This document shows positions 2,441-40,094 of a stretch of DNA of 64,000 bases, one piece after another. The notes under the pieces were generated by a model that was not told where the DNA came from, did not search any database, and worked only from the letters and a program-made list of their open reading frames with translations. Numbering within the stretch: position 1 is the stretch's first letter; every line of letters begins with the position of its first letter. The translations under genes were made by a program, and so were the position numbers. The stretch comes from a virus (taxonomy: Duplodnaviria > Heunggongvirae > Uroviricota > Caudoviricetes), in the IMG/VR virus record IMGVR_UViG_3300031687_001264. One strand, 5' to 3'.

Positions 2441-3412
2441 ATGAAAATTATTGCAGGTAACAGTAACAAAAAAATGGCACTTGCCATTGCAGAAAGGTGC
2501 TTTGCGTCACTCGTATCCGCAGATATCAAAACATTTGCAGATGGTGAATCAAGTGTACAGTTTAACGAGAACATTCGTGGCGAAGATGTTTTCATCATTC
2601 AATCAACGTCTACTCCTGTTAATGACAATCTTATGGAATTGTTGGTTATGATTGACGCTGCAAAACGTAGCAGTGCAACTCGCATTACCGCAGTAATGCC
2701 ATACTTTGGATATGCACGCCAAGATCGTAAGAGTGCATCCCGTACTCCCATCACAGCAAAACTAGTAGCAGACTTACTAACAACAGCGGGCGCAGACAGA
2801 ATCCTTACAATGGACTTACACGCAGGACAAATACAGGGATTCTTTGATATTCCAGTCGATGATCTAACATCCCGTATTGCGTTTGCTAAAGATATTAAGA
2901 AGCAATTCTTCAAAGAAGGTGCTGACGTAACCGAGATTGAAACTGTATTTGTAAGCCCAGATGCAGGCGGTACAGTTCGTGCACGTAAGTTTGCTGACAT
3001 GTTTGGTGGTGATATTGCCATTGTAGACAAGCGCAGACCACGTGCTGGTGAAAGTGAAGTTATGGGATTAATTGGCGATGTCAAAGGACAACACGCTATT
3101 CTAGTAGACGACATTATTGACTCAGGTGGTACATTATGTAATGCTGCTCAAGCAATCATGGATGCTGGTGCACTTAGTGTTAGGGCATATATTACACATG
3201 GTGTACTTAGTGGTACTGCTTGTCAACAAGTTGAAAAGAGTGTACTCACTGAACTAGTAATCACTGACAGCATTGAATTTAATTGTCCAGCAGATCATAC
3301 AAAAACTAGAACAGTAAGTGTAAGTCAAATGTTTGGTGAAGCAATTCGTCGTGTCACTAACGAAGAAAGTGTCAGTAGTTTATTCACCCAACTAGTAAGA
3401 CCTATAGTATGA
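2441..3412 (+). CDS. prs: ribose-phosphate pyrophosphokinase (PRPP synthetase)
   Basis: [16 protein letters not shown] motif and PRPP-binding loop DDIIDSGGT. 323 aa. Confidence 0.9.
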
Positions 3413-5160: not shown

Positions 5161-6072
5161 ATGAACGAAACAACTCGAACACGTAGGTCCCCAGGAGCCA
5201 AAATCGCCATTGGTGCATTCGCCGCAATCGTTGCAATTGTTGTGCTTATAGTCGCATTCAATGCATGGACAATTGTAGGTGTAGGTAAAGAGAAAGTAGG
5301 TGCTACTTTTGGTAAAGTGCACGAGTCTGCACTAGGATCAGGCTTCTATATTGTTAACCCACTTGCAGACTTTGAACGTTACGACTTGCAAGAAGTTACG
5401 TATACATGGGAAGACTTGGGTGTACCAGCACAAGATAATCTAAAAACATCAATGGACGTTGCTATTACTGGTCATTTTATATCTGGTATGACAGCAAATG
5501 TACGTGAAAATATTGGTTCTAGCGATGGATTTATGGCATCACAAGTAAATCGCAGGGTGCCTGCTATGATTGTTGAAGTAGGTAAAGAACTTGCTGTTGT
5601 TTCACAAGACTTTTATGGTGAAACTACTCTTGCACGTATGGAAACTGAAATCAAGTTCCGACTTAATAAAGAACTACAGCAACGTGGATATCAAATTACT
5701 ACTGTGAAGTTCTCAGATATCAACTTACCACAAGTAGTAACAGCAGCAATCGTAAAAACTAAGCAACGTCAACAAGAAGTTAACGAGCAGTTGGCTAAGT
5801 TGAAAATCGCTGACTTGCAAGCACAAGAGAAGACAGCAGAAGCACAGGCTGCATCTAAGTCTGCCGCATTTAATGCAACAGCAGCAGAGTTAACAGCAGA
5901 TGCAGAATTATATCGCATTCAACGGGTCGCAGAAGGTAACTTAGCACTATCAGCGTCAGTTACAGACAAATTGATTGAATTGAAAGAAGCAGAGGCAGGT
6001 CTATTGTGGAATGGTGTTATGCCAACTACCATGCTAGGTGCAACTCCAAATGTATTAATGAATCTTAAATAA
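5161..6072 (+). CDS. SPFH/band-7 (HflC/stomatin-like) membrane protein
   Basis: N-terminal transmembrane helix, VGVGKEKVGATFGKV motif and an Ala/Gln-rich coiled coil. Confidence 0.55.
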   Translation: MNETTRTRRSPGAKIAIGAFAAIVAIVVLIVAFNAWTIVGVGKEKVGATFGKVHESALGSGFYIVNPLADFERYDLQEVTYTWEDLGVPAQDNLKTSMDVAITGHFISGMTANVRENIGSSDGFMASQVNRRVPAMIVEVGKELAVVSQDFYGETTLARMETEIKFRLNKELQQRGYQITTVKFSDINLPQVVTAAIVKTKQRQQEVNEQLAKLKIADLQAQEKTAEAQAASKSAAFNATAAELTADAELYRIQRVAEGNLALSASVTDKLIELKEAEAGLLWNGVMPTTMLGATPNVLMNLK

Positions 6073-6766: not shown

Positions 6767-6946
6767 ATGAACGAAATTCATCAACAAATCGTAGAAGCAT
6801 ATGAAGCATACTTAACAGAACATGCATCATGGGAAGATAAAGGCGTTAAGGCAGCAGCAGCGCGTGCACGTAAAGCACTTGGCGATCTTGGTAAACTTAC
6901 CAAATCTCGACGCAGCGAAATACAAGACAAAAAGAACGCAATGTAA
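6767..6946 (+). CDS. hypothetical small protein (59 aa)
   Basis: Not in the ORF track. RBS aaaaggtag. Sequence MNEIHQQIVEAYEAYL... Confidence 0.35.
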   Translation: MNEIHQQIVEAYEAYLTEHASWEDKGVKAAAARARKALGDLGKLTKSRRSEIQDKKNAM

Positions 6947-7718: not shown

Positions 7719-7925
7719 ATGAGTACATTAGATAGTTTAACACACCATAAAGAAGTACTAGAACAACGTCATCGTTTATTAGATAAGGTCATTGCTGACA
7801 TGTATAAACAAAATTCAGATGATGTATTACTACATACTATGAAAAAAGAAAAGTTACAACTACGTGACGAAATTGAAGTAATGAATATTCAATTGGAACA
7901 AAATAAATCAAAAACTTTCAATTAA
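7719..7925 (+). CDS. hypothetical coiled-coil protein
   Basis: ORF with RBS aaggaaataa. Confidence 0.4.
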   Translation: MSTLDSLTHHKEVLEQRHRLLDKVIADMYKQNSDDVLLHTMKKEKLQLRDEIEVMNIQLEQNKSKTFN

Positions 7926-7928
7926 CAC

Positions 7929-7957
7929 TTGACAAGTAACTCATATTGTTATATAAT
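7929..7957 (+). promoter_or_regulatory. sigma70-type early promoter
   Basis: TTGACAAGTAAC at 7929 and TATAAT at 7952-7957. Confidence 0.6.
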
Positions 7958-7982
7958 ATCTATATTAAATAAGGAAGTAATT

Positions 7983-8075
7983 ATGTTTTGGTTATTACAC
8001 GCAGCAGCATTAATCGTTATGCCTCTTGCATTATTTGTGACTATACCACTACATCTCATTTCTAATCAACTATAG
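7983..8075 (+). CDS. 30-aa hydrophobic peptide (MFWLLHAAALIVMPLALFVTIPLHLISNQL)
   Basis: RBS taaggaag. Lies between two cell-wall hydrolase genes. Confidence 0.35.
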   Translation: MFWLLHAAALIVMPLALFVTIPLHLISNQL

Positions 8076-8091
8076 TTAAGGAATTAACAAT

Positions 8092-8745
8092 ATGAAATTT
8101 TTACTTGTATGTTCATTTTTGACGTTATTAGGTGCAGCGGCTTACGGTGAATTTGGAATGGCATCAGGAAAATTGCTCGTACCTGCAAAGATTGATTTAT
8201 CAGAAGATGAGTCTTGGATAAAGATTCAAGGTCGTTCTGATAGAAAATTCTTTCTGACTAATCCAGAGAAGCATCCCCAAATCTTTTGCCTTGCAAAGAA
8301 TATATATTTTGAAGCAGGTATTGATAGTCGCGCTGGCATGTACGCTGTGGCAGATGTAACATTAAATCGTGTAACAGACTCACGATGGGGTAATACAGTA
8401 TGTGATGTTGTTCATCATGGAGCAAAAAAAGAGAGTTGGAAAACAAAGCAAGATCCTACTCTTCCTGATTCATTACGAATATATTATCCTGTTAAGAACA
8501 AGTGTGCATTTTCATGGTATTGTGACGGCAAGCCAGACACCATCCCTTATGGAAGCACCAACTGGATTAAATCACAACACATAGCATGGGATATTTACAT
8601 GAATGGTAATTATAGTGGAATCACAGAAGGATCTACCCACTACCATGCATCGTATGCTACATTCGGACAAGGTGATTGGCGCAAAGATCGTGGCATGCAA
8701 TTCATAAGTCTTATAGGACAGCACATCTTTTATCGGTGGAACTAA
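8092..8745 (+). CDS. secreted SleB-like cell wall hydrolase
   Basis: Signal peptide plus AKNIYFEAG...VADVTLNRV (Hydrolase_2-like). Confidence 0.55.
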   Translation: MKFLLVCSFLTLLGAAAYGEFGMASGKLLVPAKIDLSEDESWIKIQGRSDRKFFLTNPEKHPQIFCLAKNIYFEAGIDSRAGMYAVADVTLNRVTDSRWGNTVCDVVHHGAKKESWKTKQDPTLPDSLRIYYPVKNKCAFSWYCDGKPDTIPYGSTNWIKSQHIAWDIYMNGNYSGITEGSTHYHASYATFGQGDWRKDRGMQFISLIGQHIFYRWN

Positions 8746-8921
8746 TGAGTATTGAAAATAGTGACGACGAAGCAGTAACCACAATTAATAAAGTGATCAA
8801 GTTAGTATATGCACGATGGGACAATGGTCACATTGACGCAATGCAACGAGACATCTTAATAAATCAATTAAAAAATACATTATATGCCTTAACAGGCAGT
8901 GATGATGATAAATATTACTAA
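8745..8921 (+). CDS. hypothetical small protein
   Basis: TAATG overlap. The track ORF extends 5' to 8676. Confidence 0.3.
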   Translation: MSIENSDDEAVTTINKVIKLVYARWDNGHIDAMQRDILINQLKNTLYALTGSDDDKYY

Positions 8922-8954
8922 ATACAACAGTATTACAATTTAAAGGAGAAACTT

Positions 8955-9272
8955 ATGTTTACTACAACAACAACTTATGAAAACAACGCAGGATGGGATA
9001 CCATAGAAGAAGCACTCACTGAAATTAATGAACTAATGACTGCAACAAAAACTGAACAGGATCAGATTAAACTCGATGAGTTAGAGTCTACTAATGATTT
9101 GATCTGGGGTGTACCTACGCTAAGCAGTGATGGAGTCACATATACATCGGTGATAACTGCAAGTCAACATGCACTGGATGTAATGGAAAGCATGTCTGCT
9201 GATTCTGGAGCAACCACTATGTATGATACAATTCAAAAATTTCAGTCTGACTGGACACCAGTGGTCGAATAA
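8955..9272 (+). CDS. hypothetical acidic protein
   Basis: ORF with RBS aaaggagaa. Confidence 0.45.
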   Translation: MFTTTTTYENNAGWDTIEEALTEINELMTATKTEQDQIKLDELESTNDLIWGVPTLSSDGVTYTSVITASQHALDVMESMSADSGATTMYDTIQKFQSDWTPVVE

Positions 9273-9607
9273 TGACTCAATGGCATGGCGGCAAAGGTGA
9301 TTTAAGACGCGCTTCTACCTACGGTTCTAAATTTGGTGATAATTATGACAAAATTTGGGGCAAAAAAGAAGCGACATTTGAGAAGACGAAGTCATCAGTG
9401 TCAGATGATGACTTACGTCCAATCGATGGAAGACTTGTCGAAGCAGATGAATGTGTGTGTCATAAATGTATTACGGACAATAAATTAATTGATTCTAGTG
9501 GATTCTTAATAAGCGTCTCTGGTAGGGTAGTATGCCCAGAGTGCAAATCAACACGATGTACTCACGCACAAGATCATAATAACAAATGTGGTGGTTGGTC
9601 ACTGTAA
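9272..9607 (+). CDS. Cys-rich zinc-ribbon-like protein
   Basis: CVCHKC...CPECK...C motif. Its 3' end forms the left copy of a 35-bp direct repeat. Confidence 0.45.
   Translation: MTQWHGGKGDLRRASTYGSKFGDNYDKIWGKKEATFEKTKSSVSDDDLRPIDGRLVEADECVCHKCITDNKLIDSSGFLISVSGRVVCPECKSTRCTHAQDHNNKCGGWSL
9573..9607. repeat. 35-bp direct repeat, copy 1
   Basis: atcataataacaaatgtggtggttggtcactgtaa. Copy 2 at 10251..10285 has one mismatch. Confidence 0.8.
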
Positions 9608-9652
9608 TAGGTACCGTGACAGTACACCATGTATGAATAATGGGAAATTAGT

Positions 9653-10216
9653 ATGCAAGGAAGAACAGAATACACGCACGACAAATTACATGAGACAATT
9701 CGATGCCAACGAAATTGGGATTGGGATAATCAAGTAACACCAGAGCATTTAGCAATTCTTGATGAATATGTAGCAAAGCCTGCGCAACAACAAGGTGAAC
9801 GAATGTTTAGTGTTGCACGAATTCATAATGATATGGAAAAAATATCTGACATACATGACAATTTAAACAAAAGTAATACTCAAGTACTGGCCCCTTTGGT
9901 GTATATTTGGTTTCCACTTGACGAACACGTCTGGGATCACCACCTTCAAGCAGGGTTTCATGCAGGAATTATATCTAAATTAGCAAACGAGTTGGGGTAT
10001 GCTACTGGGTTTTGTGGTTGTGGAGCAAGTGAAAATAGTGAATGGTCTAGTATTACAGAAAAATATAACCTAACACCAGTAGAAGATTATAAAGATCCTA
10101 TTTTTATATTAAGTATAGGACACGGAAAACCTGATACTCCATACAACAAAGACCATCTTGAAAATTTTATTCATACGCACCATCGATATGATCACGCACC
10201 AGTAAAAACAGTATAA
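9653..10216 (+). CDS. hypothetical protein flanked by the direct repeats
   Basis: ORF only. Confidence 0.45.
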   Translation: MQGRTEYTHDKLHETIRCQRNWDWDNQVTPEHLAILDEYVAKPAQQQGERMFSVARIHNDMEKISDIHDNLNKSNTQVLAPLVYIWFPLDEHVWDHHLQAGFHAGIISKLANELGYATGFCGCGASENSEWSSITEKYNLTPVEDYKDPIFILSIGHGKPDTPYNKDHLENFIHTHHRYDHAPVKTV

Positions 10217-10250
10217 TTTAATATAGGCATATGCTACGTGACACTAGTAT

Positions 10251-10285
10251 ATCATAATAACAAATGTGGTGGTTGGTCACTTTAA
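10251..10285. repeat. 35-bp direct repeat, copy 2 (intergenic)
   Basis: 34 of 35 nt identical to 9573..9607. Confidence 0.8.
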
Positions 10286-10335
10286 GATAAGTGGTCGACG
10301 ATTCACAAAATTCGCAGTTACTAATGGAGATTAAA

Positions 10336-11550
10336 ATGTCGAATCCAACATATATGGATTATTCATCAACGACCCCAGTTGATCCACGGGTCGCCAAAAA
10401 AATGGCAGATTGTTTAACAATGGAAGGCAACTTTGGCAATCCTGCATCACGTTCACATACGTACGGATGGGAAGCAGAAGCAGCCGTTGATAAAGCACGC
10501 AAACAAGTGGCAGATTTGATTGGAGCAGATACACGAGAGATTGTATGGACATCAGGCGCAACTGAATCAAACAATCTAGCACTTAAAGGCATTGCTCAGT
10601 TTTATGCAAAACGTGGTAAGCATATTATTACGTTACGAACAGAACATAAAGCAATACTAGATACTTGTCGTCAACTTGAGCGTGAGGGATTTGAAGTAAC
10701 TTACTTAGACCCAATGCCCAACGGTTTACTAGACATTGAAGTGTTTAAAAATACAATCAGAGAAGACACCATTTTAGCATCATTTATGCATGTTAATAAT
10801 GAGATTGGTGTTATACAAGACTTACACGCCATTGGTGATATCTGTAGAGAACATAAAGTATTCTTCCATGTTGACGCTGCTCAATCAGTAGGCAAAATGC
10901 CAATTGACTTAGCAACGCTCCCAGTAGATTTAATGAGTTTTTCCGCACATAAGATATACGGACCTAAAGGCATGGGTGCATTGTATGTATCACGTAAACC
11001 TAGAGTTCGTCTTGAAGCACAAATGCATGGTGGTGGTCATGAACGCGGTATGCGTTCTGGTACATTAGCAACACATCAAATTGTTGGCATGGGCGAAGCA
11101 TTTGCTATCGCACAAGAAATGATGGCAGAAGAAGAAGTTAGAACACGCGCACTTAGAGATAGGTTATACGCAGGCTTTTCAGATATGGAAGAAGTAGTAG
11201 TTAATGGTGATTTTGAACAGCGTATTGGCAGCAACTTAAATATCAGTTTCAATTACGTAGAGGGTGAATCTCTATTAATGGCAATCTCTAATATTGCAGT
11301 ATCTTCTGGTTCTGCATGTACATCTGCAAGTCTTGAACCATCATACGTTCTTAGAGCGTTAGGACTTAGTGACGAATTAGCACACAGTTCAATTCGATTT
11401 AGTGTTGGTCGTTATACAACAGAAAAAGATGTAGATGATGCAATTATTCTAGTACGACAGAAAGTAGAAAAATTAAGAGACTTATCACCATTATGGGACA
11501 TGTACAAAGATGGTGTTGATTTAAGTACGGTACAATGGGCTGCTCACTAA
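10336..11550 (+). CDS. iscS: cysteine desulfurase IscS/NifS
   Basis: N-terminus [13 protein letters not shown] with the IscS-like PLP fold. 404 aa from the ATG after RBS ggag. Confidence 0.9.
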
Positions 11551-11595
11551 TAAGCAACCCTAAATAATAGTAAATTAACTAAGGAATATAATTAT

Positions 11596-11979
11596 ATGAG
11601 TTACAGTAAGGCAGTATTAGATCATTACGAAAACCCACGCAACGTAGGTAAGATGGATGAATCTGATGAAAATGTAGGTACAGGAATGGTAGGTGCACCA
11701 GCATGTGGTGACGTAATGCGTCTACAAATCAAGGTTAGCGATGAAGGCATCATTGAAGATGCTAAGTTCAAAACCTATGGGTGTGGTTCTGCAATTGCAT
11801 CAAGTTCATTGGTGACAGAAATATTAAAAGGTATGGATTTAGACGAAGCAGTTTCTATTTCTAATAGTGAAATTGCACAAGAACTTGCATTACCACCTGT
11901 TAAAATTCACTGTTCTGTATTAGCAGAAGACGCTATCAAAGCAGCAGTCGCAGATTATAAAGAAAAGCACGCCATCTAA
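11596..11979 (+). CDS. iscU: Fe-S cluster scaffold IscU
   Basis: APACGDVMRL, YGCGSAIASSS and HCSVLAE motifs. Confidence 0.9.
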   Translation: MSYSKAVLDHYENPRNVGKMDESDENVGTGMVGAPACGDVMRLQIKVSDEGIIEDAKFKTYGCGSAIASSSLVTEILKGMDLDEAVSISNSEIAQELALPPVKIHCSVLAEDAIKAAVADYKEKHAI

Positions 11980-12275
11980 TGTGGGACATCATACAAAGCA
12001 TGTCATCAGATAGACTCTGGATATGGACTGCATTGGCTGGTAGTATTTTCGGTGCATTGTTTATAGCATGGATTACTGATACTCGTGTCGCTCTATGGAC
12101 TTATGGTAAATGGTCTACATTACTAAATTATCTAGTAACTAAATGGGGTTGGACATGGTTTCAAGAAGATCCCAATGCATGGAAAAAACTAAACCCTAAT
12201 CTATCTAATAAGATAGTTGATCTAGAATCTCGCATTATCGAACTAGAAAACAAAAAAACATTAGAGGACAAGTAA
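11979..12275 (+). CDS. small membrane protein
   Basis: N-terminal transmembrane helix and coiled-coil tail. Confidence 0.4.
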   Translation: MWDIIQSMSSDRLWIWTALAGSIFGALFIAWITDTRVALWTYGKWSTLLNYLVTKWGWTWFQEDPNAWKKLNPNLSNKIVDLESRIIELENKKTLEDK

Positions 12276-13058
12276 TTGGCAACCACATATGAAACTGTGT
12301 TAGAAGTAATTCATTACACAGACGAATTATTTTATTTCAAAACAACACGTAATCCAGGATTCAGATTTAAAGATGGTGAATTCGTTATGATGGGTTTAGA
12401 TCATTTCTCAGAAAAACTTCAAAAGAATAAACCTATATTGAGAGCATACAGTATTGCTTCTCCATCGTACGCTGAATACTTAGAATTCTATAGTATCAAA
12501 GTACAAGATGGTCCGTTAACAAGTAAATTACAGCATGTTAAAGTAGGTGACAAAATCCTAGTAGGTACTAAACCAACTGGTACATTAGTCCCAGATAATG
12601 TCAAGCCAGGTCGTAATCTATATATGTTAAGTTCGGGCACTGGCGTAGCACCATTTATGGGGTTAGCACGTAGTCTTGATATTTACGACAACTATGATAA
12701 TGTAATATTGGTACACGGTACTAGAAAGATCGAAGATTTAGTTTGGAAAGATATGTGGTTAGGTCTTAACGAACACGAATTGTATGGTGAGTTAGTGCAG
12801 AATAAATTCCATTATTACGCAACGGTTTCTCGTGAAGAATATGAGAATGAAGGCAGAGTAACTACCGCACTATTCGATCATTCGATAGAAGACAAGTTAC
12901 AGTTACCACATCTTGATTCTGAATTCGATAGAGTTATGATTTGCGGGTCTATTCCATTCAATGAGGATTTACAAAATCATCTACTTGAAAAAGGATTCGT
13001 TGAAGGTAACATGAGTGATCCAGGCACATTCGTAGTAGAACGTGCATTCGTAGGATAA
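12276..13058 (+). CDS. fpr: ferredoxin/flavodoxin-NADP+ reductase
   Basis: RAYSIAS FAD motif and SSGTGVAPF NADP motif. TTG start. Confidence 0.75.
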   Translation: MATTYETVLEVIHYTDELFYFKTTRNPGFRFKDGEFVMMGLDHFSEKLQKNKPILRAYSIASPSYAEYLEFYSIKVQDGPLTSKLQHVKVGDKILVGTKPTGTLVPDNVKPGRNLYMLSSGTGVAPFMGLARSLDIYDNYDNVILVHGTRKIEDLVWKDMWLGLNEHELYGELVQNKFHYYATVSREEYENEGRVTTALFDHSIEDKLQLPHLDSEFDRVMICGSIPFNEDLQNHLLEKGFVEGNMSDPGTFVVERAFVG

Positions 13059-13063
13059 CAATA

Positions 13064-13087
13064 GCCCAGTTTAACTGGGCTTTTTTA
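13064..13087. terminator. bidirectional rho-independent terminator
   Basis: gcccag-tttaa-ctgggc followed by T6. Sits between convergent genes. Confidence 0.65.
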
Positions 13088-13891
13088 TTTGCGTTGTTTA
13101 ATCTTTTCAATATAATTAGTACTTAGGTGATCATAAATCCCATCAAAAAATTGAAACTTACTCCATGCTTTAAATGTACCTTTTACTTTATCAACAAATC
13201 GTTGCCACCAAGTAAGATCAGTTAATATTTTAAAATCATAAGTTATATAATTTAACTGTCCAACATGACGATAATATCCTAATATCGGAACTTGTGGTAT
13301 AATGTCATTATTGTTTACGAAGCGATATGCTTCTATGTTATCAAACTGTACACCCCATTCCTTATTGCCTGTTCTTGGGCATCCATATGTATACAATACC
13401 AAATCTGCGTCTAATTTAGCCACCCTACTTGCAAGGATAGTTGCCATTGCAGCACCTAGACTATGTCCTGTTATAACAAGTTTTTTAGTGGTTACTCGCT
13501 TACCTAACCATTTAATGATTGATGGGTATAACTTATCAATTTCTGTTTTAAATCCATAGTGTACATAACCAACTGTTTCACTATCGGATGGCCATGCTTT
13601 AATGTCTGCTAACATATCTTTTGCTTGTGTTGGCTCGGTTCCTCGTAATGCTATAACTATATAGTCTGGCATAACAATACCATATCCTTGTGCACTATCG
13701 TTTGTAAAAAACTTGATACTAGAATATTTTATATTATTATCTTTTAAGTATGCAGACATTCTTGCTTTATCATAATATGCTTCATCGCATAAATGTGCAC
13801 ATAATTCTGCAATTTTCCAATCTACTTCTTTATTTTGTGGCATGTAATATCTCCAATTATGTATATATTTAGTCAAATAAAGTGTTGACAA
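13085..13891 (-). CDS. class 3 (fungal-type) lipase
   Basis: GHSLGAAMA nucleophile elbow. Confidence 0.75.
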   Translation of the reverse strand: MSTLYLTKYIHNWRYYMPQNKEVDWKIAELCAHLCDEAYYDKARMSAYLKDNNIKYSSIKFFTNDSAQGYGIVMPDYIVIALRGTEPTQAKDMLADIKAWPSDSETVGYVHYGFKTEIDKLYPSIIKWLGKRVTTKKLVITGHSLGAAMATILASRVAKLDADLVLYTYGCPRTGNKEWGVQFDNIEAYRFVNNNDIIPQVPILGYYRHVGQLNYITYDFKILTDLTWWQRFVDKVKGTFKAWSKFQFFDGIYDHLSTNYIEKIKQRK

Positions 13892-14555: not shown

Positions 14556-15104
14556 ATGAGTAAAGAAATCTTGGCAGAAACGGTTGCTCACACTGCTCAT
14601 GCAGCAGTCGGACAATTAAGGAAATACAGTGATGAACCATACATTGTTCATCCTCGTGAAGTAGCAGAGATTGTTAGGTTTTACGGTGGATCTACTATTC
14701 AAATTCAAGCCGCATTCCTTCATGACGTGGTAGAAGATACTTCACTTACAGTTGATTTCATATCTAAAATGTTTGGTACAGAAGTCGCTACAATGGTAGA
14801 TTGGCTAACTGATGTATCTGTTCCCGACGATGGTAACAGGAAAATTAGAAAAGCACTTGATCGCGCACACTTAGCAGATGCTCCTTTAGAGGCTCAATTT
14901 GTAAAAGTTGCTGACTTGATTTCAAACTCCAAATCTATATGCGAGGCTAATGAAGGGTTCACAATAGTCTATATGCAAGAAAAAGAATTATTGTTACGTG
15001 ACATGACCAAAATTCACGGGACTGACATATACAATCGTGCAATGCGATTACTAGAACAATATTATGTGGGAACACCACATGAACCGTTATTAACAGGAGA
15101 ATAA
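14556..15104 (+). CDS. small alarmone hydrolase (RelA/SpoT-type HD domain, (p)ppGpp hydrolase)
   Basis: HP...AAFLHDVVEDT HD_4 signature. 182 aa with no synthetase domain. Confidence 0.75.
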   Translation: MSKEILAETVAHTAHAAVGQLRKYSDEPYIVHPREVAEIVRFYGGSTIQIQAAFLHDVVEDTSLTVDFISKMFGTEVATMVDWLTDVSVPDDGNRKIRKALDRAHLADAPLEAQFVKVADLISNSKSICEANEGFTIVYMQEKELLLRDMTKIHGTDIYNRAMRLLEQYYVGTPHEPLLTGE

Positions 15105-17186: not shown

Positions 17187-17835
17187 TAACTGGTTTAATA
17201 ACCATATCTCATTAGGTGGCAGTGTTCATATAGTACATGACACTGTTTCACTTATCGGTTCGCCCAAACCATATCTAACTGATATCTATGATAGATTCTC
17301 AAAACTAACATTCGAAGATGTAGAGCATTTCATGGGCTCTCGTATCTTAGACAATTCAATGCCCAATCGTGCATTGATCGAAGATGCAACTAAGTTGTAT
17401 TATCTAGAAGAACAAATCAAACAAGACAAACTAATATTCAAACCGCAACTATTACACGAACCTTGGGCAGATAGATATCGTGTTCATCCTGGTTCGGGTC
17501 GTATCGCAGCAATGTGGAAATGTGATCCCATAAAACCTATAGAAAGCATCTATATTCACTTCAATGAAGACATATTTACTATCCCTCAGAATAGCACCGA
17601 AGTGAGGTCCTCAGAGGCTTTCTTAGACGCAATCACGTATAAGGCGACTAATAGCATAGATTGTACAGTGGAACCAGCGTTAAAACGTACGGAACGAGAC
17701 ACCGAATGGAATCCAACAATAGTAAGTACCGTAAATTGGGAATTCATTCGTTATAGTGAAGGGAAATATTTCTTGGAATATAAGCAAGCATGGCGTGACT
17801 ACGCACTCGACTTATGGTTACTACTTAATCGCTAG
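17152..17835 (+). CDS. hypothetical protein
   Basis: ORF only. Confidence 0.4.
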   Translation: MLSSQNNFSIINNWFNNHISLGGSVHIVHDTVSLIGSPKPYLTDIYDRFSKLTFEDVEHFMGSRILDNSMPNRALIEDATKLYYLEEQIKQDKLIFKPQLLHEPWADRYRVHPGSGRIAAMWKCDPIKPIESIYIHFNEDIFTIPQNSTEVRSSEAFLDAITYKATNSIDCTVEPALKRTERDTEWNPTIVSTVNWEFIRYSEGKYFLEYKQAWRDYALDLWLLLNR

Positions 17836-18525
17836 ATTAGATCTAACCCAGTCATGCATTTCAGGCGTGTTATGCGCATTGATAACTAACCAATAACTAT
17901 CTTTAGTACTTGCATTAAATAATGCATGCTCTAATGTAGTGTTCACTGCATATAGTTGGCCCATTTCAAAATAAAGCGGCTTATCTTCTAACATAAATCT
18001 AAACCACGGATTTGTAGTATTAGATAACGCCATTATTAATCTAAACGTATCCACATTTTCACCACGACTATCTCGATGTGGTGGGAAATAACCGCCTGGC
18101 GATACTCTCAATATATGCGTTCTACCACATAAATGTAATATATCACCAAGTAACTCTTTCATTGAAGTGAGATCATACACAGGGGTAGTTTTATCAAAAT
18201 CTTTTTCACTGTAATCTGTATTATATTTTCTATTCCATTCATACAGACTATTCAATGCGGGACCAGATTGATTTAAACCACTTTCATTTATTACACATAG
18301 ACCGTCTCGCTTAATATGTGGTTTAAATTCATTGTATTGTTCCCATTTATCGTCAAACTGTGATAGTTCTTCCATAAATCTGCTAGTATTAATACTCTTA
18401 TCTAATAAGATTTGATTTCCTAAATTAAAAATTACAGACATATAACTATTCCTTAAAAGATGTATCGCCGGGAAACAATGGTAATTGTGTACCTGGCGCA
18501 CGCTTAGGTATCTTACTATCTGCAC
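17821..18525 (-). CDS. Asp/Asn beta-hydroxylase-family 2OG-Fe(II) oxygenase
   Basis: PGGYFPPHRDSRGE ... TLEHALFN ... LVINAH. An HxD...H facial triad with spacing typical of the AspH/LpxO family. Confidence 0.5.
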   Translation of the reverse strand: MQIVRYLSVRQVHNYHCFPAIHLLRNSYMSVIFNLGNQILLDKSINTSRFMEELSQFDDKWEQYNEFKPHIKRDGLCVINESGLNQSGPALNSLYEWNRKYNTDYSEKDFDKTTPVYDLTSMKELLGDILHLCGRTHILRVSPGGYFPPHRDSRGENVDTFRLIMALSNTTNPWFRFMLEDKPLYFEMGQLYAVNTTLEHALFNASTKDSYWLVINAHNTPEMHDWVRSNLAIK

Positions 18526-19663
18526 TACTCACGCACGCATTAGTCGTACATACTGTGGGTGCATCAAATAACTTGAAACCTGTTTCTATATTTCCTAACG
18601 GCTGATCTACGCAACTATAACTACGCTTCACACTACCATCTGGTTCTCTGATAATAATACTACGATGACCAGATGAACATTCCCAGCCCTTGAATTTATT
18701 AAAACCAAATGCGTTGAATCGTTCAGCCTGATCCATGAACCAATGCTTGTTATCTTTATCCATGAACTCAACTTGAAAATGCTGAGGCACTGTTACATTC
18801 TCTTCCCAATACAACGGATCCCCATCTTTCTTAAATGTAGGTGTCGGGCGTGTAACCAACTGAGTCTTTTTCGCTTTATCTTCTGTATAACCACGCTGTG
18901 GCATACCGTTGTGTAATCGCTCCATCTGCTCTGCGGTGTAACCATCTACTATCTTACTAGCAGTAGGATCAGACATAGGCTTTAATGTACAGTTGATTCC
19001 CTGATTATGAAAGAATAACGCATTATCCCAATCTCGCTCAAACCATTCTGGAACCATCACTTGATTGATAGTTACTTGTACATCATGTTCTTGACAGAAT
19101 ATTAACTTATCAGCAAAGACTTGCATCTTTTCTCTAGTGTCTAAATGCTCTGTGTGCAAACTTGCTGTAATACTTGCTCTATGAAATGGTGCGACATTCT
19201 TAACATAAGTCTCAAACCACTTCATGGGACGTGACATATTAGTTGTCATGTGAACTGATGTGTAATTAGTGTTATCTACATCATCTGCAAGGTGTTTCAT
19301 TATATCCAAATATCCCGGATGGAATGTTGGTTCACCCCCGCTTAAACTAAAGTGAAAACTATTGAAACCATTGTCTCGTGCTTGACGCTTAATCTCGTCA
19401 ACTGTACGTAAACATAACTCAGTAGGTCTAAAGTCTTTCTTATCACTACGAGCGTAAGGCCAGCAGTAACTACAACGATAGTTACAATAGCGTCCCAGTA
19501 ACCAACTAATACTGAATAAATCGCGATGAAGCATTGTGCGTTGCCCTACTCTTACTAAATCATCAAATGGTATTTTAGTAAAATCGTATGTACTGTATTT
19601 TAAATCTTCGCTCATTTTAGATGCACCATGAAATCTTTTTATCGCCATAATATTCTCTAGCAA
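18446..19663 (-). CDS. radical SAM enzyme with C-terminal SPASM/twitch domain (canonical order)
   Basis: CNYRCSYC, SGGEP and C-terminal C...DGSV...C..PLGNI...C..C. Confidence 0.75.
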   Translation of the reverse strand: MLENIMAIKRFHGASKMSEDLKYSTYDFTKIPFDDLVRVGQRTMLHRDLFSISWLLGRYCNYRCSYCWPYARSDKKDFRPTELCLRTVDEIKRQARDNGFNSFHFSLSGGEPTFHPGYLDIMKHLADDVDNTNYTSVHMTTNMSRPMKWFETYVKNVAPFHRASITASLHTEHLDTREKMQVFADKLIFCQEHDVQVTINQVMVPEWFERDWDNALFFHNQGINCTLKPMSDPTASKIVDGYTAEQMERLHNGMPQRGYTEDKAKKTQLVTRPTPTFKKDGDPLYWEENVTVPQHFQVEFMDKDNKHWFMDQAERFNAFGFNKFKGWECSSGHRSIIIREPDGSVKRSYSCVDQPLGNIETGFKLFDAPTVCTTNACVSSADSKIPKRAPGTQLPLFPGDTSFKE

Positions 19664-20054
19664 AGCCTTCTGCTATGAGCATGTGTCTTAAACTCTTGCC
19701 ATCTATAATGATATCACCAAGTACTCGACCACCATACTTGTCCCATTTATAAATGGCTACTTGTATAACCGTTGCTGCATTTAACATATCTTTAGTAAAC
19801 TGTGACGCTTCTTCACCCCATGCTGCTTCTTTAGGACATTCTGCTCTCCAACTTTTTTCTGGAGTATCTACACCATATACACGAATACTTAATTCCTGCT
19901 TCAATGGTGCTGGTAAAAAGGTAGCTTCAAATGCAACGGTGTCGCCATCAATCACTCTTGTAATCTTATAATCGTAGATGGTCATCTCTACTTCTTTTGC
20001 CATTGCTGGCATTGTTGATAGTATTGCAATTAATAAAATTATAATCGTTCTCAT
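19617..20054 (-). CDS. secreted thermonuclease (SNase-like)
   Basis: Signal peptide plus VIDGDT, RVYGVDTPE and DKYGGRVLGD. Confidence 0.7.
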   Translation of the reverse strand: MRTIIILLIAILSTMPAMAKEVEMTIYDYKITRVIDGDTVAFEATFLPAPLKQELSIRVYGVDTPEKSWRAECPKEAAWGEEASQFTKDMLNAATVIQVAIYKWDKYGGRVLGDIIIDGKSLRHMLIAEGFAREYYGDKKISWCI

Positions 20055-20989
20055 GCTGTCTCTCCGTTAATGTAGTATTTATTATAAAGTATATCGTATG
20101 CGTCTACGACCTGTTTGTAACGCCTACCATATATCTGTGCTGCTTCTTTTAATATATCACTGTTACTTACACCTAAGTAATCAAGTATAACATCTGTATT
20201 TTTAAACCATTCAACGTCTGCTACTAAATGATCAATTTTATCTTCTTCTATATAGGATAATGACTCATTTTGAACAAACACATCTTCGTAATCGTGTTTT
20301 TCTTCAAATAGCCTATGGAACGAATACTCAAATTCAAAAATACCATCACCAGTGTTATCGTCTATGTGACTTAGCGATTTCTTCAAATCCCAATGTGCAA
20401 AATTTAATTGCCACATATATTTCAACTTACCATCGTGAAAATCCTCTATACATTTGTCGTGATAATCTCTATACCAAACTTCTTTCCATTTGCCAATAAT
20501 ATCTCCGTCCATTAGCATGTGATCTTCCCACCACAACTGCGTTTGTTCAATTATCTCATCTTCTGTTAATTCAATAAATGCATATTGCGTTATATAGAAC
20601 ATTGCACTTTGTTCGGTTGTGACTTGGGTGAATATGAGTTTGTCAGCAATTGGTGCGAACCTTGAATCATATGTAGCACCGAAATAATTACTCCACACTT
20701 TATATTGAAAATCTTCATTAAATTTAAAATATTCGGAAAGGCAATCAATCCCACCATCTGTTTCTGTTTTATTTTCCATCATTCTAAGCGTTTCTTGATG
20801 ACTATAATATAAATCTTGATCAATAAGATGGGTATATCGGTTCTCTTCAACTATGGTTCCAATTGCTAGTCGTTCAGGTGTTGGCTTTAATCCAGAATAG
20901 ATTTGAGGACCAAATCTATGATCTTGTGCAAGCCACCAATGAATCGCAGGTGCATGTGCATTTACTACTTGATATATTCCGATGTTCAT
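20051..20989 (-). CDS. hypothetical acidic protein
   Basis: ORF translationally coupled to the upstream 38-aa ORF. Confidence 0.5.
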   Translation of the reverse strand: MNIGIYQVVNAHAPAIHWWLAQDHRFGPQIYSGLKPTPERLAIGTIVEENRYTHLIDQDLYYSHQETLRMMENKTETDGGIDCLSEYFKFNEDFQYKVWSNYFGATYDSRFAPIADKLIFTQVTTEQSAMFYITQYAFIELTEDEIIEQTQLWWEDHMLMDGDIIGKWKEVWYRDYHDKCIEDFHDGKLKYMWQLNFAHWDLKKSLSHIDDNTGDGIFEFEYSFHRLFEEKHDYEDVFVQNESLSYIEEDKIDHLVADVEWFKNTDVILDYLGVSNSDILKEAAQIYGRRYKQVVDAYDILYNKYYINGETA

Positions 20990-21102
20990 AGTGCAAGGTA
21001 ATTAGGCATAGCCATGATAGGCGATGATGTTAAAATTATAGCCAATGTGACTGACGCCACTTTAGCCAATAGCACTACTGCTTGCTTAATATATATTTTC
21101 AT
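20986..21102 (-). CDS. 38-aa hydrophobic peptide (MKIYIKQAVVLLAKVASVTLAIILTSSPIMAMPNYLAL)
   Basis: Not in the ORF track. RBS aaggaa 6 nt upstream. Stop overlaps the next gene's ATG (ATGA). Confidence 0.4.
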   Translation of the reverse strand: MKIYIKQAVVLLAKVASVTLAIILTSSPIMAMPNYLAL

Positions 21103-21111
21103 AATTATTCC

Positions 21112-21762
21112 TTAATTTTTTGAACGGTTAATCCATTCTTCATCTGTCACTTGTATAGGATCAATACTTAATTCATTCAATGACAGATGTTCAGGCAATA
21201 TCATCGCATATTCAATACAATCTACCGCTTCTTCAAATGTCATCAACTTGCGTCCTGGATGCTTGTCTGCGTTATTCGGCAATGTACCAAACGTAACATA
21301 ACTCACCTTTGGGCCACCTTGCCAGATACTTTTCAATCCCATAGCGTTACTCGCACTACGTAATGCTTTCTTCTCTTGTTGATATGTCCAATCCGACCCT
21401 TTTGTAGCCCTGTCCGTGGTGGACCCGACAGACACTATATGTAGGGATTTCCGGGCACTCTGTGCGGTTTTATATACTACATCTAGTAGCAGTGCCTGAT
21501 GGTACTGCCATAGTGCACTACAGTTAATAAAAATGTCGTATTCTAGTGCTTTATTTGCAACAGTTTTTTTCACATGATTCAATGTTAGATCATGGTCACT
21601 GATGCTTTGACTAATAAAATCTGTCTGTGGATATCGTTTTAATATCTCACTCGCTAGACCAATCTCTGGATTACCTGTACATAATATTTTCTTATTAGTT
21701 AAATCAATCACTTTACTTTCCTTTTTACTACTGGACGCAACGTCCATATTTCTTTTGTACAT
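21112..21762 (-). CDS. short-chain dehydrogenase/reductase-like
   Basis: Rossmann motif CTGNPEIGLA and YQQEK (YxxxK). Confidence 0.45.
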   Translation of the reverse strand: MYKRNMDVASSSKKESKVIDLTNKKILCTGNPEIGLASEILKRYPQTDFISQSISDHDLTLNHVKKTVANKALEYDIFINCSALWQYHQALLLDVVYKTAQSARKSLHIVSVGSTTDRATKGSDWTYQQEKKALRSASNAMGLKSIWQGGPKVSYVTFGTLPNNADKHPGRKLMTFEEAVDCIEYAMILPEHLSLNELSIDPIQVTDEEWINRSKN

Positions 21763-21813
21763 CGGTGTGGCATATCGTCAACGTAGGTACCACAATATGG
21801 GCATAGAATCTGA

Positions 21814-23076
21814 TTAGTTATTGTCATTGATTTGTCCTTTAAATTCTGGACATGATTCTACTAACGTACCACGTTGCAATTCATCCATCTTCAAATTATA
21901 ATCAATAAATTCTTGCCAGTGTTCAGCATGTGTATTCCCAGCATTTAAATACTTAATCACATCGTCTACCTTAGGCCATGCTTTATGACTTTTTAAATTA
22001 TACAATGCCAACGTCTTTAAATGATGTGGCAATACTTGTATATTCATACTACGCGGATGGTTTAATATATTGAAATATAACTGATCATGTTCTAATCCAC
22101 GTGATTCCGCAAACTCGATAACCTCGTGTAGTGCACATACATTCAATGCTTGTACCGTACAATGAATCTGAATATATACATTATCCAATTTAGATAATTC
22201 ATCAAAATTCTTTTCTACTATATGCCAATGACTAGGGTAACGAATATATCTGTCACGCGCACCAATTGCATCAATTGAGCAATTTAATTGTACACGCTTG
22301 AAATGTGACCAATATTCGATCATCTTCGGTGGCACATTAGTTAGGTTGGTGTTGTACTTTAAACGAATGCCCGATGCAAGATCATTTTCAATACAATAGT
22401 CTAACAACTTATATTGACTAACTGCCAATGTAGGCTCACCACCAGTTAAATAAATTTCTTCAACCGTATGAGCAATTTCAGTGAATGTAATACCTGTCTT
22501 TTCCCAATCTGGCCATTCAGTCATGGTATTCATGAATTCTAATGTGTCTTCATCCAATTTCTTTGGTGGATCTAAATATGCTGCATCAACTACTTTATTC
22601 CAATCTTTAACCCACATGCTACTTGCCCACGGATTACACATGCGACATTTTAGGTTACATAAGTTACCCAAGCGTAAGTCAACATATTTCACATCAACTG
22701 GAATTTCAACATCTATCTTCACATCTTCTTTCAGCCACTTTTCATTAAATCCTGCTCGCGCACTACGAATGCCAGCATCTTCTTCTCTGAAACAACGCGC
22801 ACACATATCTGGTCGCTCACCATCGATGAACTGTTTTCTGATAGTTGTATAGGTTGGGCTATTCCATACTTCATCTAAATCATGCTTGTAGATTTTATAT
22901 GGCTTGCCATTCTCTTGTAATATTGTGTTCTCACCGGGCGTGCTATTACAGCATACTCGATAAGATCCCGCAGCATTAGTTGCTACGTGCATAAAGGGTA
23001 AAACACAGAACGTGTCACTTACTTTTTTTGTCATTGGTTTAAATCCATTTTGTATAATCTTTGCCATCACTATCAT
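21814..23076 (-). CDS. radical SAM enzyme with N-terminal SPASM-like Cys domain (paralog 1)
   Basis: FCVLPFMH...RVCC...CARC, then CNLKCRMC and LTGGEP. Confidence 0.7.
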   Translation of the reverse strand: MIVMAKIIQNGFKPMTKKVSDTFCVLPFMHVATNAAGSYRVCCNSTPGENTILQENGKPYKIYKHDLDEVWNSPTYTTIRKQFIDGERPDMCARCFREEDAGIRSARAGFNEKWLKEDVKIDVEIPVDVKYVDLRLGNLCNLKCRMCNPWASSMWVKDWNKVVDAAYLDPPKKLDEDTLEFMNTMTEWPDWEKTGITFTEIAHTVEEIYLTGGEPTLAVSQYKLLDYCIENDLASGIRLKYNTNLTNVPPKMIEYWSHFKRVQLNCSIDAIGARDRYIRYPSHWHIVEKNFDELSKLDNVYIQIHCTVQALNVCALHEVIEFAESRGLEHDQLYFNILNHPRSMNIQVLPHHLKTLALYNLKSHKAWPKVDDVIKYLNAGNTHAEHWQEFIDYNLKMDELQRGTLVESCPEFKGQINDNN

Positions 23077-24704: not shown

Positions 24705-24714
24705 AATTTATCTC

Positions 24715-26274: not shown

Positions 26275-26304
26275 TTTTCGTCCTTATCGTCTGATTTCAT
26301 ATGT

Positions 26305-33072: not shown

Positions 33073-33074
33073 TA

Positions 33075-33305: not shown

Positions 33306-33357
33306 GGTAATCCCCTATAAGTTTTATATATATGTATGTATTATAACATTGATACTA

Positions 33358-39979: not shown

Positions 39980-40094
39980 TTCTTTACCTCTTGTATTGCA
40001 TTGTATTTGTATAACCAACAAGTAATCTGAATATTCCACCAATGGGAGCGTAGAATATAAAGATACCTATATTGTTCGTGCTTAGGAAACATTA

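Follow-up and report, generated by a model that had tools for sequence, protein, structure and literature searches.

Marine T4-like viral genomes have been reported to encode the iron-sulfur (Fe-S) cluster assembly proteins IscU, A-type carrier, SufA/SufE and NifU, and some of them hold up to 12 genes for radical S-adenosylmethionine enzymes (rSAMs). In that study, the assembly proteins were proposed to supply Fe-S proteins which the viruses themselves encode (Nishimura et al. 2017, PMC5332604). Viral Fe-S assembly genes have likewise been described as auxiliary metabolic genes (AMGs; PMC8940887), and viral iscS is listed in AMG catalogues without genome-context analysis (PMC5704599, PMC7288430). 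Here we describe a locus of this kind in a stretch of 64,000 nucleotides from the IMG/VR virus record IMGVR_UViG_3300031687_001264 (Caudoviricetes), hereafter the window, in which genes for a cysteine desulfurase (IscS), a cluster scaffold (IscU) and a ferredoxin-NADP+ reductase (FNR) lie in one co-directional run, the isc-fnr locus. We consider it reasonably likely that this locus is a phage booster of Fe-S biogenesis, which has its own NADPH-linked electron input and is placed behind a host-type early promoter. Our analysis supports a link of the isc-fnr module to Fe-S assembly and to one rSAM family; a link to the whole seven-gene rSAM island of the same phage is not established.

Like the genomes described earlier (PMC5332604), the window belongs to a marine tailed phage with an IscU of gammaproteobacterial type. 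However, those genomes hold scaffolds and carriers only, whereas the window phage adds IscS and an NADPH-ferredoxin reductase. Viral Fe-S AMGs are host-derived assembly genes in a bona fide viral genome, and the isc-fnr set is of this kind. An FNR has also been annotated in the jumbo cyanophage PhiMa05 (PMC8093824) and SufB in amoC-phages (bioRxiv 10.64898/2026.06.18.733297), but these are single genes, read in terms of photosynthesis or host mimicry, without pairing to IscS/IscU. In the phage collection, PhiMa05 gave no match to the window FNR at E<=1e-5, and its FNR is presumably of a different class. Among cultured phages only C48C1 has a close IscU, with no FNR or rSAM nearby. The co-occurrence of viral IscU or A-type carrier with rSAM genes is already published, together with the same functional suggestion. 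We found no published description of IscS, IscU and Fpr in one operon, of their mosaic origin or of an IscS from the SUP05 lineage, and none of an association of FNR with ISC (iron-sulfur cluster), SUF or carrier genes or of its tight coupling to one rSAM family.

Compared with the bacterial ISC operon of E. coli and Pseudothioglobus (locus L229), the phage IscS and IscU are of orthologue grade and lie in the same IscS-IscU order. However, the bacterial operon has seven genes, of which the window holds only the first two. A motif scan and phmmer searches with Pseudothioglobus seeds found no IscR, IscA/A-type carrier, HscB, HscA or isc ferredoxin (Fdx) in the window, and its two flanks, of about 10 kb each, likewise contain none of them. 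The phage set is therefore to be named a sub-module and not an ISC operon. The host isc locus examined (L229) is without an Fpr-type FNR, whereas the phage unit adds FNR, nitroreductase-fold, cysteine-rich and membrane ORFs (open reading frames). The promoter of the host operon is controlled by IscR, while that of the phage set is of a phage early type.

As in the gammaproteobacterial chain from NADPH through Fpr to ferredoxin or flavodoxin, the phage FNR is a full-length subclass-I Fpr, and the Fdx-docking arginines of IscS are kept. However, no carrier lies near FNR in the window phage; the relative L003 has an FdI-type ferredoxin beside IscS. FdI is the physiological partner of subclass-I FPR, as in the pair of Azotobacter FPR (1A8P) and ferredoxin I. 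The mitochondrial core ISC machinery (NFS1-ISCU, FDX2 and a ferredoxin reductase) contains the same trio of desulfurase, scaffold and NADPH reductase, and the phage IscS and IscU match the human proteins with E 1e-150 and 1e-56, respectively. This is an analogy of composition only, as the phage set is without ISD11/ACP, frataxin and FDX2 and its reductase is of another family, the mitochondrial one being of the adrenodoxin-reductase type. Laboratory co-expression with pDB1282 follows the same logic as the phage set, by supplying extra isc genes alongside overproduced rSAM enzymes (PMC9576991). However, pDB1282 carries iscSUA-hscBA-fdx, while the phage has only iscS, iscU and a reductase.

The isc-fnr transcription unit and its proteins

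The genes of the locus and the elements which bracket it are listed below (aa, amino acids).

7929 to 7957, plus strand: predicted sigma-70 promoter of perfect consensus, TTGACAAGTAA...N17...TATAAT, the nearest upstream of the isc-fnr genes
9272 to 9607, plus strand: cysteine-rich ORF, 111 aa, seven conserved cysteines (CxCxxC...CxxCx4Cx9C)
9653 to 10216, plus strand: ORF of 187 aa immediately upstream of IscS, predicted nitroreductase / FMN-dependent NAD(P)H oxidoreductase fold
10336 to 11550, plus strand: IscS, pyridoxal phosphate (PLP)-dependent cysteine desulfurase, 404 aa, from profile scores and alignment to E. coli IscS
11596 to 11979, plus strand: IscU, Fe-S cluster scaffold, 127 aa, from profile score and alignment to E. 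coli IscU
11979 to 12275, plus strand: membrane ORF, 98 aa, one predicted N-terminal membrane helix
12276 to 13058, plus strand: ferredoxin/flavodoxin-NADP+ reductase of bacterial subclass I (Fpr/FprA type), 260 aa, TTG start, from structure matches and motifs
13063 to 13081, both strands: bidirectional intrinsic-terminator-like hairpin, 8-bp stem with 5 GC pairs, T-run on the plus strand

An earlier reading of the DNA made from its letters (the sequence-only reading) had placed iscS (404 aa), iscU and an FNR-type reductase between 10336 and 13058. All three are present there with support at the family level, while the 98-aa ORF between IscU and FNR had been overlooked. The IscS start codon, ATG at 10336, has GGAG 7 nt upstream and gives a protein of the same length as E. 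coli IscS, whereas the GTG at 10291 gives an upstream extension. IscS scores 735.7 bits against the NCBIfam equivalog NF010611 (cutoff 548) and 721.2 against TIGR02006 (cutoff 643.2). Identity as NifS, DndA or SufS was rejected, because all three scores stay below the cutoffs (445.5 vs 530.75, 430.6 vs 480 and 150 vs 475, respectively). Alignment with E. coli IscS (1P3W) is gapless over residues 2-404, and the PLP-binding K206 (SAHK206), the loop with the persulfide-forming Cys328 (SSGSAC328), the C-terminal tail and R220/R223/R225 are all kept. In E. coli, the tail is the docking site of IscU and the arginine patch that of Fdx, CyaY and IscX. Judged from the alignment, the phage IscS appears to retain the residues needed to form a persulfide on Cys328 from cysteine.

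IscU follows 45 nt after the IscS stop and scores 221.7 bits against the equivalog TIGR01999 (cutoff 192.4). In comparison with E. coli IscU (2L4X) it keeps C37, D39, C63, H105, C106 and LPPVK99-103. Thus the phage IscU appears to retain the cluster ligands as well as the LPPVK motif, through which the host HscA/HscB would release the cluster.

FNR, which metagenome annotators also call as 260 aa, contains the two motifs quoted in the sequence-only reading, RAYSIAS (residues 56-62; RAYS56-59) and SGTGVAPF (within SSGTGVAPF 119-127; GTGVAP121-126), along with GPLTS79-83, MICGS and a C-terminal VVERAFVG. Over residues 5-259 it matches the solved subclass-I enzymes 6RR3 (E 1.7e-78), P. aeruginosa Fpr 2QDX (1.4e-73), A. 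vinelandii FPR 1A8P (9e-73) and 2BGI (6.7e-71). In Pfam, NAD_binding_1 is matched with 42.2 bits (cutoff 22) and FAD_binding_6 with 18.1, just under its cutoff of 21.1; the N-terminal domain aligns throughout to the solved FPRs. An E. coli-type Fpr (subclass II) was considered and rejected, the score against NF008178 (PRK10926) being 104 bits against a cutoff of 390 and the match to E. coli 1FDR only E 1.8e-22. The low score arises because NF008178 represents subclass II, while the phage FNR is of the Azotobacter/Pseudomonas subclass. From its sequence, FNR is a complete subclass-I Fpr. Its homologues (45-92% identity) occur on 40 IMG/VR contigs and among thousands of metagenome proteins.

All seven Pfam-annotated FNR contexts which we inspected are phage-like, including a contig from a metagenome-assembled genome (MAG) of 'Ca. 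Endolissoclinum'. This contig (L055; ENA NODE_1701, 75 kb; protein P0053), deposited under 'Candidatus Endolissoclinum sp.', encodes Endonuclease VII, a clamp loader, DNA ligase and MazG. It is clearly phage by gene content, and the FNR named after Endolissoclinum is therefore mis-attributed. Another contig, L009, is 99.9% identical to the window but switches within FNR (locus position 12215, window position 12550 onwards) to a diverged allele, so that the two FNR proteins are 57% identical overall. The switch is either a recombination mosaic or an assembly chimera.

The unit is co-directional and runs from a cell-wall hydrolase gene at 8092 through small ORFs, the cysteine-rich ORF at 9272, the ORF at 9653, IscS, IscU and the 98-aa ORF to FNR. 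No terminator-like site was found on the plus strand between 7957 and 13063. Sequence signals suggest that this transcription unit (8092-13058) probably begins at the 7929-7957 promoter and is early. The hairpin at 13063-13081, five bases past the FNR stop and between FNR and a convergent lipase gene, appears to mark its end. Perfect TTGACA-N16-18-TATAAT sites number 11 in the window, against 0.22 expected, and none of 100 shuffles reaches 11. All 11 are on the coding strand, at the following positions.

307, 2379, 7929, 13885 and 14093, plus strand: perfect sigma-70 sites
33357, 36789, 38377, 38789, 59170 and 63343, minus strand: perfect sigma-70 sites

These sites probably form the early-promoter class of the phage, and their number implies that one class of phage genes is evidently served by the host sigma-70 RNA polymerase. 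An extended -35 region, TTGACA(A/C)GTAA, is common to six of them. A generic sigma-70 scan was discarded, as its sites were no commoner than in shuffles; only the perfect-consensus class is informative.

Three further ORFs belong to the unit. The 111-aa cysteine-rich protein is presumed from its cysteines to bind metal. It has only 6 close homologues among 5.8 billion proteins and no match in Pfam, NCBIfam or PDB, yet in L052 and L012, the two nearest relatives, its gene immediately precedes that of IscS or IscU, and its ratio of nonsynonymous to synonymous substitution rates (dN/dS) is 0.15-0.19. The idea that it is a recognisable carrier was dropped, given no PDB sequence match, 6 homologues and an AlphaFold2 (AF2) model with a pLDDT of 40. 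The 187-aa protein gave an AF2 model of medium confidence (pTM 0.70, mean pLDDT 65.6), and all of the top 50 Foldseek matches of this model in the PDB are flavoproteins of the nitroreductase family (E down to 5e-7, TM about 0.6-0.66). The protein has no NCBIfam match and no Pfam match, that to the nitroreductase family PF00881 included. Thus, from the model, we predict a second flavoenzyme in the unit, of nitroreductase fold but not a member of the family. In L391/L392, a homologue with 49% identity and an rSAM from the FNR-coupled family described below are part of one run of genes in the same direction.

The 98-aa ORF is tightly packed into the unit, as its start overlaps the IscU stop (ATGA) and the start codon of FNR abuts its own stop. 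Its position after IscU is conserved in L012 and L052, and in L001 it lies near IscS; its dN/dS is 0.23-0.29, and it has no family match in Pfam or NCBIfam. In L052 (a 92-94% relative; positions 7769-9958), an Asp/Arg-hydroxylase-like cupin, a methyltransferase and a 245-aa ORF are inserted between this ORF and FNR; these genes are of the same kinds as those of the rSAM island.

Origin of the genes and their neighbourhoods in related phages

The window is part of a phage genome, as seen from its T4-type family-B DNA polymerase (PolB), its PHROG-type phage proteins and its membership of an IMG/VR contig. PolB is 43-49% identical to that of the giant myoviruses Phosso, Atu_ph07, Vibrio phage 2.275.O, GAP32, CBB and 121Q, and the source is an uncultured marine jumbo (giant) phage. 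When the locus was compared by megablast with 50,697 phage records, there was no match and hence no close cultured phage. The identical IscS protein occurs in the same gene order on 18 metagenome contigs, and near relatives are present in IMG/VR. Protein-level matches of IscS, IscU and FNR under phage names were discarded, since almost all are bacterial contigs. Such contaminants include the multi-contig Acinetobacter phage MD-2021a, fragments from Listeria, Staphylococcus and Enterococcus and two Salmonella whole-genome shotgun contigs; bacterial contigs in the deposited phage collection inflate apparent AMG counts.

IscS, IscU and FNR are under strong purifying selection within the phage lineage. 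Between the window and the sister phages L052 and L012, dN/dS is 0.054 for IscS (vs L052), about 0.10 for IscU and about 0.08 for FNR, whereas flanking phage genes give higher values of 0.14-0.29. Cellular homologues were searched in a set of 185,579 prokaryotes, with each species represented by one genome. There, IscS comes closest to that of SUP05/ARCTIC96BD-19 bacteria (87% identity to a Pseudothioglobus chromosome and 88% to a single-cell genome), against 72-75% for other gammaproteobacteria, and in a neighbour-joining tree the phage IscS is nested within Thioglobaceae. From the IscS gene alone, we infer that the host is a SUP05/Pseudothioglobus-type bacterium. The IscS of L029 groups with a different Thioglobaceae genome than the other phage IscS, which suggests a second capture.

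In contrast, IscU shares about 83% identity with its Oceanospirillales-type counterparts and no more than 76% with those of Thioglobaceae, and other phage IscUs form groups of their own in the tree. A single capture of a host iscSU operon was thus rejected, as IscS groups with Thioglobaceae and IscU does not. Recent transfer was rejected as well: comparison of phage with host IscS shows saturation at synonymous sites, and the locus has ameliorated in GC content (37.8% for the isc-fnr locus, 36.6% for the phage and 40.9% for the host locus). The close relative L012 has IscU, the 98-aa ORF and FNR without IscS. The different donors of IscS and IscU, together with the gene content of L012, indicate that the set was built stepwise in phages, which argues for selection on the gene combination. 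In Pseudothioglobus, the locus (L229) has all seven genes of the iscR-iscS-iscU-iscA-hscB-hscA-fdx operon, with a convergent gene of apbC/mrp type after it, and a host of this type could supply every step absent from the phage set.

The rSAM genes of the window lie in a separate island, the parts of which are as follows.

17821 to 33386, minus strand: radical-SAM island, with its own perfect sigma-70 promoter at 33357-33386
18446 to 19663, 21814 to 23076, 23039 to 23971, 26627 to 27325, 27315 to 28541, 28528 to 29661 and 31060 to 32310, minus strand: the seven rSAM ORFs
26305 to 27325, minus strand: split SPASM-type rSAM (generic SPASM-class matches), made up of the core rSAM4 (26627-27325, 232 aa) and a Cys-rich C-terminal partner, o26305 (26305-26640, 111 aa)
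17821 to 18525 and 23949 to 24704, minus strand: Asp/Asn-hydroxylase-like cupins
19617 to 20054, minus strand: staphylococcal nuclease homologue (SNase)
20051 to 20989, minus strand: o20051

The sequence-only reading had counted seven or more rSAMs, with an island about 5 kb from the locus, and this agrees with our analysis: seven ORFs lie between 18446 and 32310 on the minus strand, the nearest of them 5.4 kb from the FNR stop. All seven contain CxxxCxxC and have Pfam/NCBIfam radical-SAM matches. Five pass the cutoff (170) of the N-terminal twitch rSAM model NF033640, with 375.2, 313.1, 252.8, 226.0 and 186.1 bits, whereas rSAM1 (42.7) and rSAM4 (42.5) fall below it. When rSAM4 and o26305 are aligned to the rSAMs of about 350 aa which are coupled to FNR or Isc genes in relatives, rSAM4 covers residues 1-190 and o26305 about 240-340. 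This two-part alignment identifies 26305-27325 as a split member of the FNR-coupled family. The isc-fnr unit and the island are separate transcription units on opposite strands, each behind a perfect sigma-70 promoter. Their shared promoter class is compatible with, rather than a demonstration of, co-timed expression of the two loci.

Several observations concern such islands more generally. At least 594 IMG/VR contigs encode twitch rSAMs, which almost always cluster into islands with 3-12 rSAM ORFs per 20 kb. Asp/Asn-beta-hydroxylase-like cupins of two types are often present, in 24 and 21 of 70 such loci (L311-L390). Twitch-rSAM islands represent an unexplained gene system that is very common in viruses. 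At its proximal end (19617-20989, minus strand), the window island consists of o20051 (312 aa, sometimes duplicated, no family match) followed by the SNase homologue. The same pair is the most constant upstream neighbour of FNR in a clade of about 60% identity (L019-L029, L308, L310).

We compared neighbourhoods by counting genes within +-10 kb of an anchor gene after removal of redundant loci; the statistics ignore phylogeny, and relatives are non-independent. The rSAM detector was seeded on SPASM, twitch and B12 classes, and IscU, IscS, SufB/D and A-type carrier were counted as Fe-S assembly genes. Control loci (ClpA/B-like and PolB) came from a wider phage range than the FNR loci. An rSAM is found near 10 of the 27 FNR anchors (37%) and an Fe-S assembly gene near 13 (48%), as against 6 (9%) and at most 8 (12%) of 65 ClpA/B-like control loci; the nominal Fisher p is 0.005 for rSAM and 0.0006 for Fe-S assembly. 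One or the other lies near 20 of the 27 FNR loci (74%). The PolB control, with 1 rSAM and 0 Fe-S assembly genes at 6 non-redundant loci, is too small to be useful. Because assembly genes (13/27) outnumber rSAMs (10/27) near FNR, this reductase seems to belong to Fe-S biogenesis no less than to the supply of reductant for rSAM. Around 72 IscU anchors, among the matches listed, we found rSAM 5 times, A-type carrier 47, IscS 2, FNR 2 and glutaredoxin 21. This IscU-anchored IMG/VR set is environmentally heterogeneous, and the closest relatives of the window phage are not among the matches listed.

The Fe-S partners of FNR change with clade. They are IscU/IscS at about 60% and 92% FNR identity, SufB and SufD at 56% (L308), and an A-type carrier 1.6-6 kb downstream of FNR at 46-49%. 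In L308 (3390-6565), the genes upstream of SNase and FNR encode SufB, a short protein resembling SufD and an FAD oxidoreductase of the DAO family, and this locus is a SUF-based counterpart of the ISC genes of the window. Elsewhere, IscS lies between DnaJ and a ClpA/B-like gene (L001), and on a 138-kb viral contig (L003, 8966-11212) IscS is immediately preceded by a contiguous pair, an FdI-type 7Fe ferredoxin (Fer4+DUF3470) and a carrier of Nfu type (NifU C-terminal domain). The FdI-type ferredoxin occurs in 12 other viral loci, 6-9 kb from a ClpA/B-like gene, and never next to FNR. Taken together, phages differ in which subset they carry of IscS, IscU, Nfu, A-type carrier, SufBD, ferredoxin, FNR and glutaredoxin. 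This is the pattern expected for genes which reinforce one host pathway at different steps.

The rSAMs near FNR or Isc genes are mostly of one short SPASM-type family, to which NCBIfam gives no specific function. An rSAM of about 350 aa starts 10-13 nt after FNR (L017, L024) or IscS (L029) and 340-383 nt after IscU (L002, L004); in other relatives a 232-aa core and a separate Cys-rich partner lie 0.5-1.9 kb from FNR or IscS. Upstream of FNR on a 249-kb phage contig (L053/L054, 4041-9946) lie a B12-dependent, KedN5-like rSAM C-methyltransferase and AMP-binding ORFs that resemble acyl-CoA ligases, a gene content which hints at small-molecule or peptide tailoring chemistry.

Proposed role and competing explanations

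The role of the isc-fnr locus is deduced from sequence and gene context. If the locus boosts Fe-S biogenesis, phage IscS would make a persulfide, phage IscU would build the cluster and host HscA/HscB would release it. With NADPH as electron source, FNR would reduce a small carrier, which is probably either a flavodoxin or the ferredoxin of the host isc operon. A host carrier is proposed because no ferredoxin or flavodoxin is encoded in the 84 kb examined, and the electron path from FNR is for the same reason a predicted one. The reduced carrier would give electrons for reduction of persulfide sulfur on IscS/IscU and for coupling of [2Fe-2S] into [4Fe-4S] clusters, and would also re-reduce the [4Fe-4S] clusters of rSAM enzymes. 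The IscA, HscBA, Fdx and ApbC steps would be left to the host. Since the phage copies stand behind a phage promoter, they would escape the IscR feedback on the host operon, and early in infection the unit would raise cluster synthesis and the supply of reductant. As clients, phage Fe-S enzymes are best supported, and among these most of all the SPASM-type rSAM family, represented in the window by 26305-27325; the island enzymes of twitch type, with about two clusters each, are plausible further consumers. NADPH, FNR and Fdx have been reported to be sufficient for cluster assembly by IscS/IscU in vitro (Yan et al. 2015, PMC4547094). It is also known that rSAM clusters require an electron donor of low potential and are reduced by flavodoxin, and that overexpressed Fe-S enzymes exceed the cellular cluster supply unless the isc operon is co-expressed (PMC9576991).

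The biochemical logic of the sequence-only reading, in which ISC supplies clusters and Fpr supplies reductant, is right. The functional link which it drew between the isc/fpr and rSAM genes stands in part: it is favoured by the enrichment of rSAMs at FNR loci (10/27 vs 6/65) and by the 10-13 nt spacings after FNR or IscS. However, the partner rSAMs are of the SPASM-type family and not of the twitch type which forms five of the seven island genes. Carriage of isc/fpr without rSAM genes at a similar frequency would speak against the link, and within +-10 kb this is partly what we see, as 17 of the 27 FNR loci are without rSAM. Several results weigh against the booster as well. Near 70 twitch-rSAM anchors (2-12 rSAM ORFs each), FNR, IscU, IscS and SufBD were found 0 times and an A-type carrier once. 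IscU-anchored loci show no rSAM enrichment (5/72 among the matches listed). From these two results it follows that phage rSAM islands normally manage on the host Fe-S supply. Seven of the 27 FNR loci, L055 and L309 among them, have neither an rSAM nor an Fe-S assembly gene nearby. Neither a Cys-motif scan nor seed searches revealed a ferredoxin or flavodoxin in the window, and its flanks, covered to about 10 kb each, also gave none. Finally, SNase, HD_4 and ClpP recur in the same neighbourhoods as FNR, so that some of the proximity may reflect only a shared region of accessory genes.

It is possible, although in our view unlikely, that phage IscS, IscU and FNR have no special tie to phage rSAMs and instead sustain the Fe-S energy metabolism of the host (respiration, sulfur oxidation and central metabolism), its NADPH/ferredoxin balance or its tolerance of oxidative stress. 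In ocean viromes, genes for IscU, A-type carrier, SufE and NifU are widespread, and host maintenance is their usual interpretation (PMC5332604, PMC8940887). The FNR loci without rSAM fit this explanation, as do the 67 of 72 IscU loci, among the matches listed, which have no rSAM within 10 kb and the 69 of 70 twitch-rSAM islands without an Fe-S assembly gene nearby. The complete cultured Phage C48C1 has IscU without annotated rSAM or FNR in an 18-kb context, and in L055 and L309 FNR adjoins glutaredoxin among NAD/nucleotide genes. However, host maintenance leaves three features unexplained, namely the start of rSAM 10-13 nt after FNR or IscS in several diverged phages, the roughly 4-fold rSAM enrichment at FNR loci and the nitroreductase-fold ORF travelling with the same rSAM family. 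The two explanations are compatible, as serving phage clients and maintaining the host are not mutually exclusive.

We regard it as improbable that the isc-fnr and rSAM genes are merely co-resident in a hypervariable accessory region, with proximity a by-product of tolerated insertion sites. Besides SNase, HD_4 and ClpP, the same neighbourhoods repeatedly hold lipase and glutaredoxin; gene order is heavily shuffled between relatives, as in the three extra genes between the 98-aa ORF and FNR in L052 and the allele switch inside FNR in L009; and on the 205-kb contig L026/L322 FNR/IscU and twitch rSAM are more than 100 kb apart. However, the shuffling keeps reuniting genes of one pathway from different donors or systems (ISC, SUF, A-type carrier, Nfu and ferredoxin), which is a classic signature of functional coupling. 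The 10-13 nt spacings and stop/start overlaps imply co-transcription and probable translational coupling, and the enrichment over two control anchors is significant at the nominal level.

A more specific possibility, which we consider quite improbable, is a private pathway for maturation and activation of one viral SPASM-type rSAM family, built in marine jumbo phages from the genes of different donors. Here IscS/IscU would load the clusters, and FNR, translationally coupled to rSAM in several relatives, would reduce the rSAM directly or through a phage-specific carrier (the seven-Cys 111-aa or the nitroreductase-fold protein), without a canonical ferredoxin or flavodoxin.

It is very improbable that the IscS persulfide serves mainly for thio-modification of tRNA, DNA or cofactors, perhaps via a rhodanese, with FNR meeting an unrelated redox need: IscS is a general sulfur hub, for which IscU and TusA are reported to compete with consequences for phage lambda replication (PMC3296357, PMC11302665), rhodanese and QueC are encoded about 1-6 kb past the right window end on contigs of the same phage, and IscS reaches 430.6 bits against the DndA model, though below the cutoff of 480; but an intact IscU follows within the same unit, both proteins being strongly constrained, the IscS of relatives adjoins IscU, Nfu, ferredoxin or rSAM genes and not thiolation enzymes, the window has no tRNA genes, the IscS equivalog cutoffs are passed while those of DndA and NifS are failed, and the rhodanese is about 51 kb away.

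Other genes of the phage and implications

Further genes around the isc-fnr locus lie at 2441-3412, 5161-6072, 6767-6946, 13085-13891 and 14556-15104, on both strands. They are PRPP (phosphoribosyl pyrophosphate) synthetase, a Band_7/SPFH protein, an Hc1 histone-like protein, a class-3 lipase convergent on FNR, and HD_4. The HD_4 (RelA/SpoT-like HD) hydrolase recurs 5-8 kb from FNR in many relatives. The window encodes a ClpA/B-like chaperone and DnaJ, as part of a proteostasis block at 55226-59591 (minus strand) with an M17 leucyl aminopeptidase (PepA-like, 473 aa), the ClpA/ClpB-like double-AAA+ protein (758 aa) and DnaJ (231 aa). A ClpP lies about 7 kb past the left window end; the phage therefore has a proteostasis set of its own. 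An acyl-CoA dehydrogenase of 402 aa with three full domains (38834-40042, minus strand), unusual in a phage, adjoins the DNA polymerase. Past the right window end (L395, 3505-9225), the same phage encodes a single-domain rhodanese sulfurtransferase, RtcB RNA ligase, QueC of the 7-deazaguanine pathway and an AMP-binding enzyme, and this rhodanese could be a sulfur acceptor from phage IscS. Scans of the window for tRNA and Rfam families were empty.

If the isc-fnr locus acts as we propose, some abundant uncultured ocean phages would carry the sulfur-mobilising step of cluster assembly together with an NADPH electron input, outside the control of IscR. Fe-S cofactor supply would then be a resource which phages re-engineer in small-genome hosts such as SUP05/ARCTIC96BD-19, bacteria which are important in marine sulfur and carbon cycling. 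The rSAM family found 10-13 nt from FNR or IscS gives a handle on the large unexplained rSAM sets of marine phages, and from the IscS phylogeny a host can be proposed for a lineage of jumbo phages without a cultured relative.

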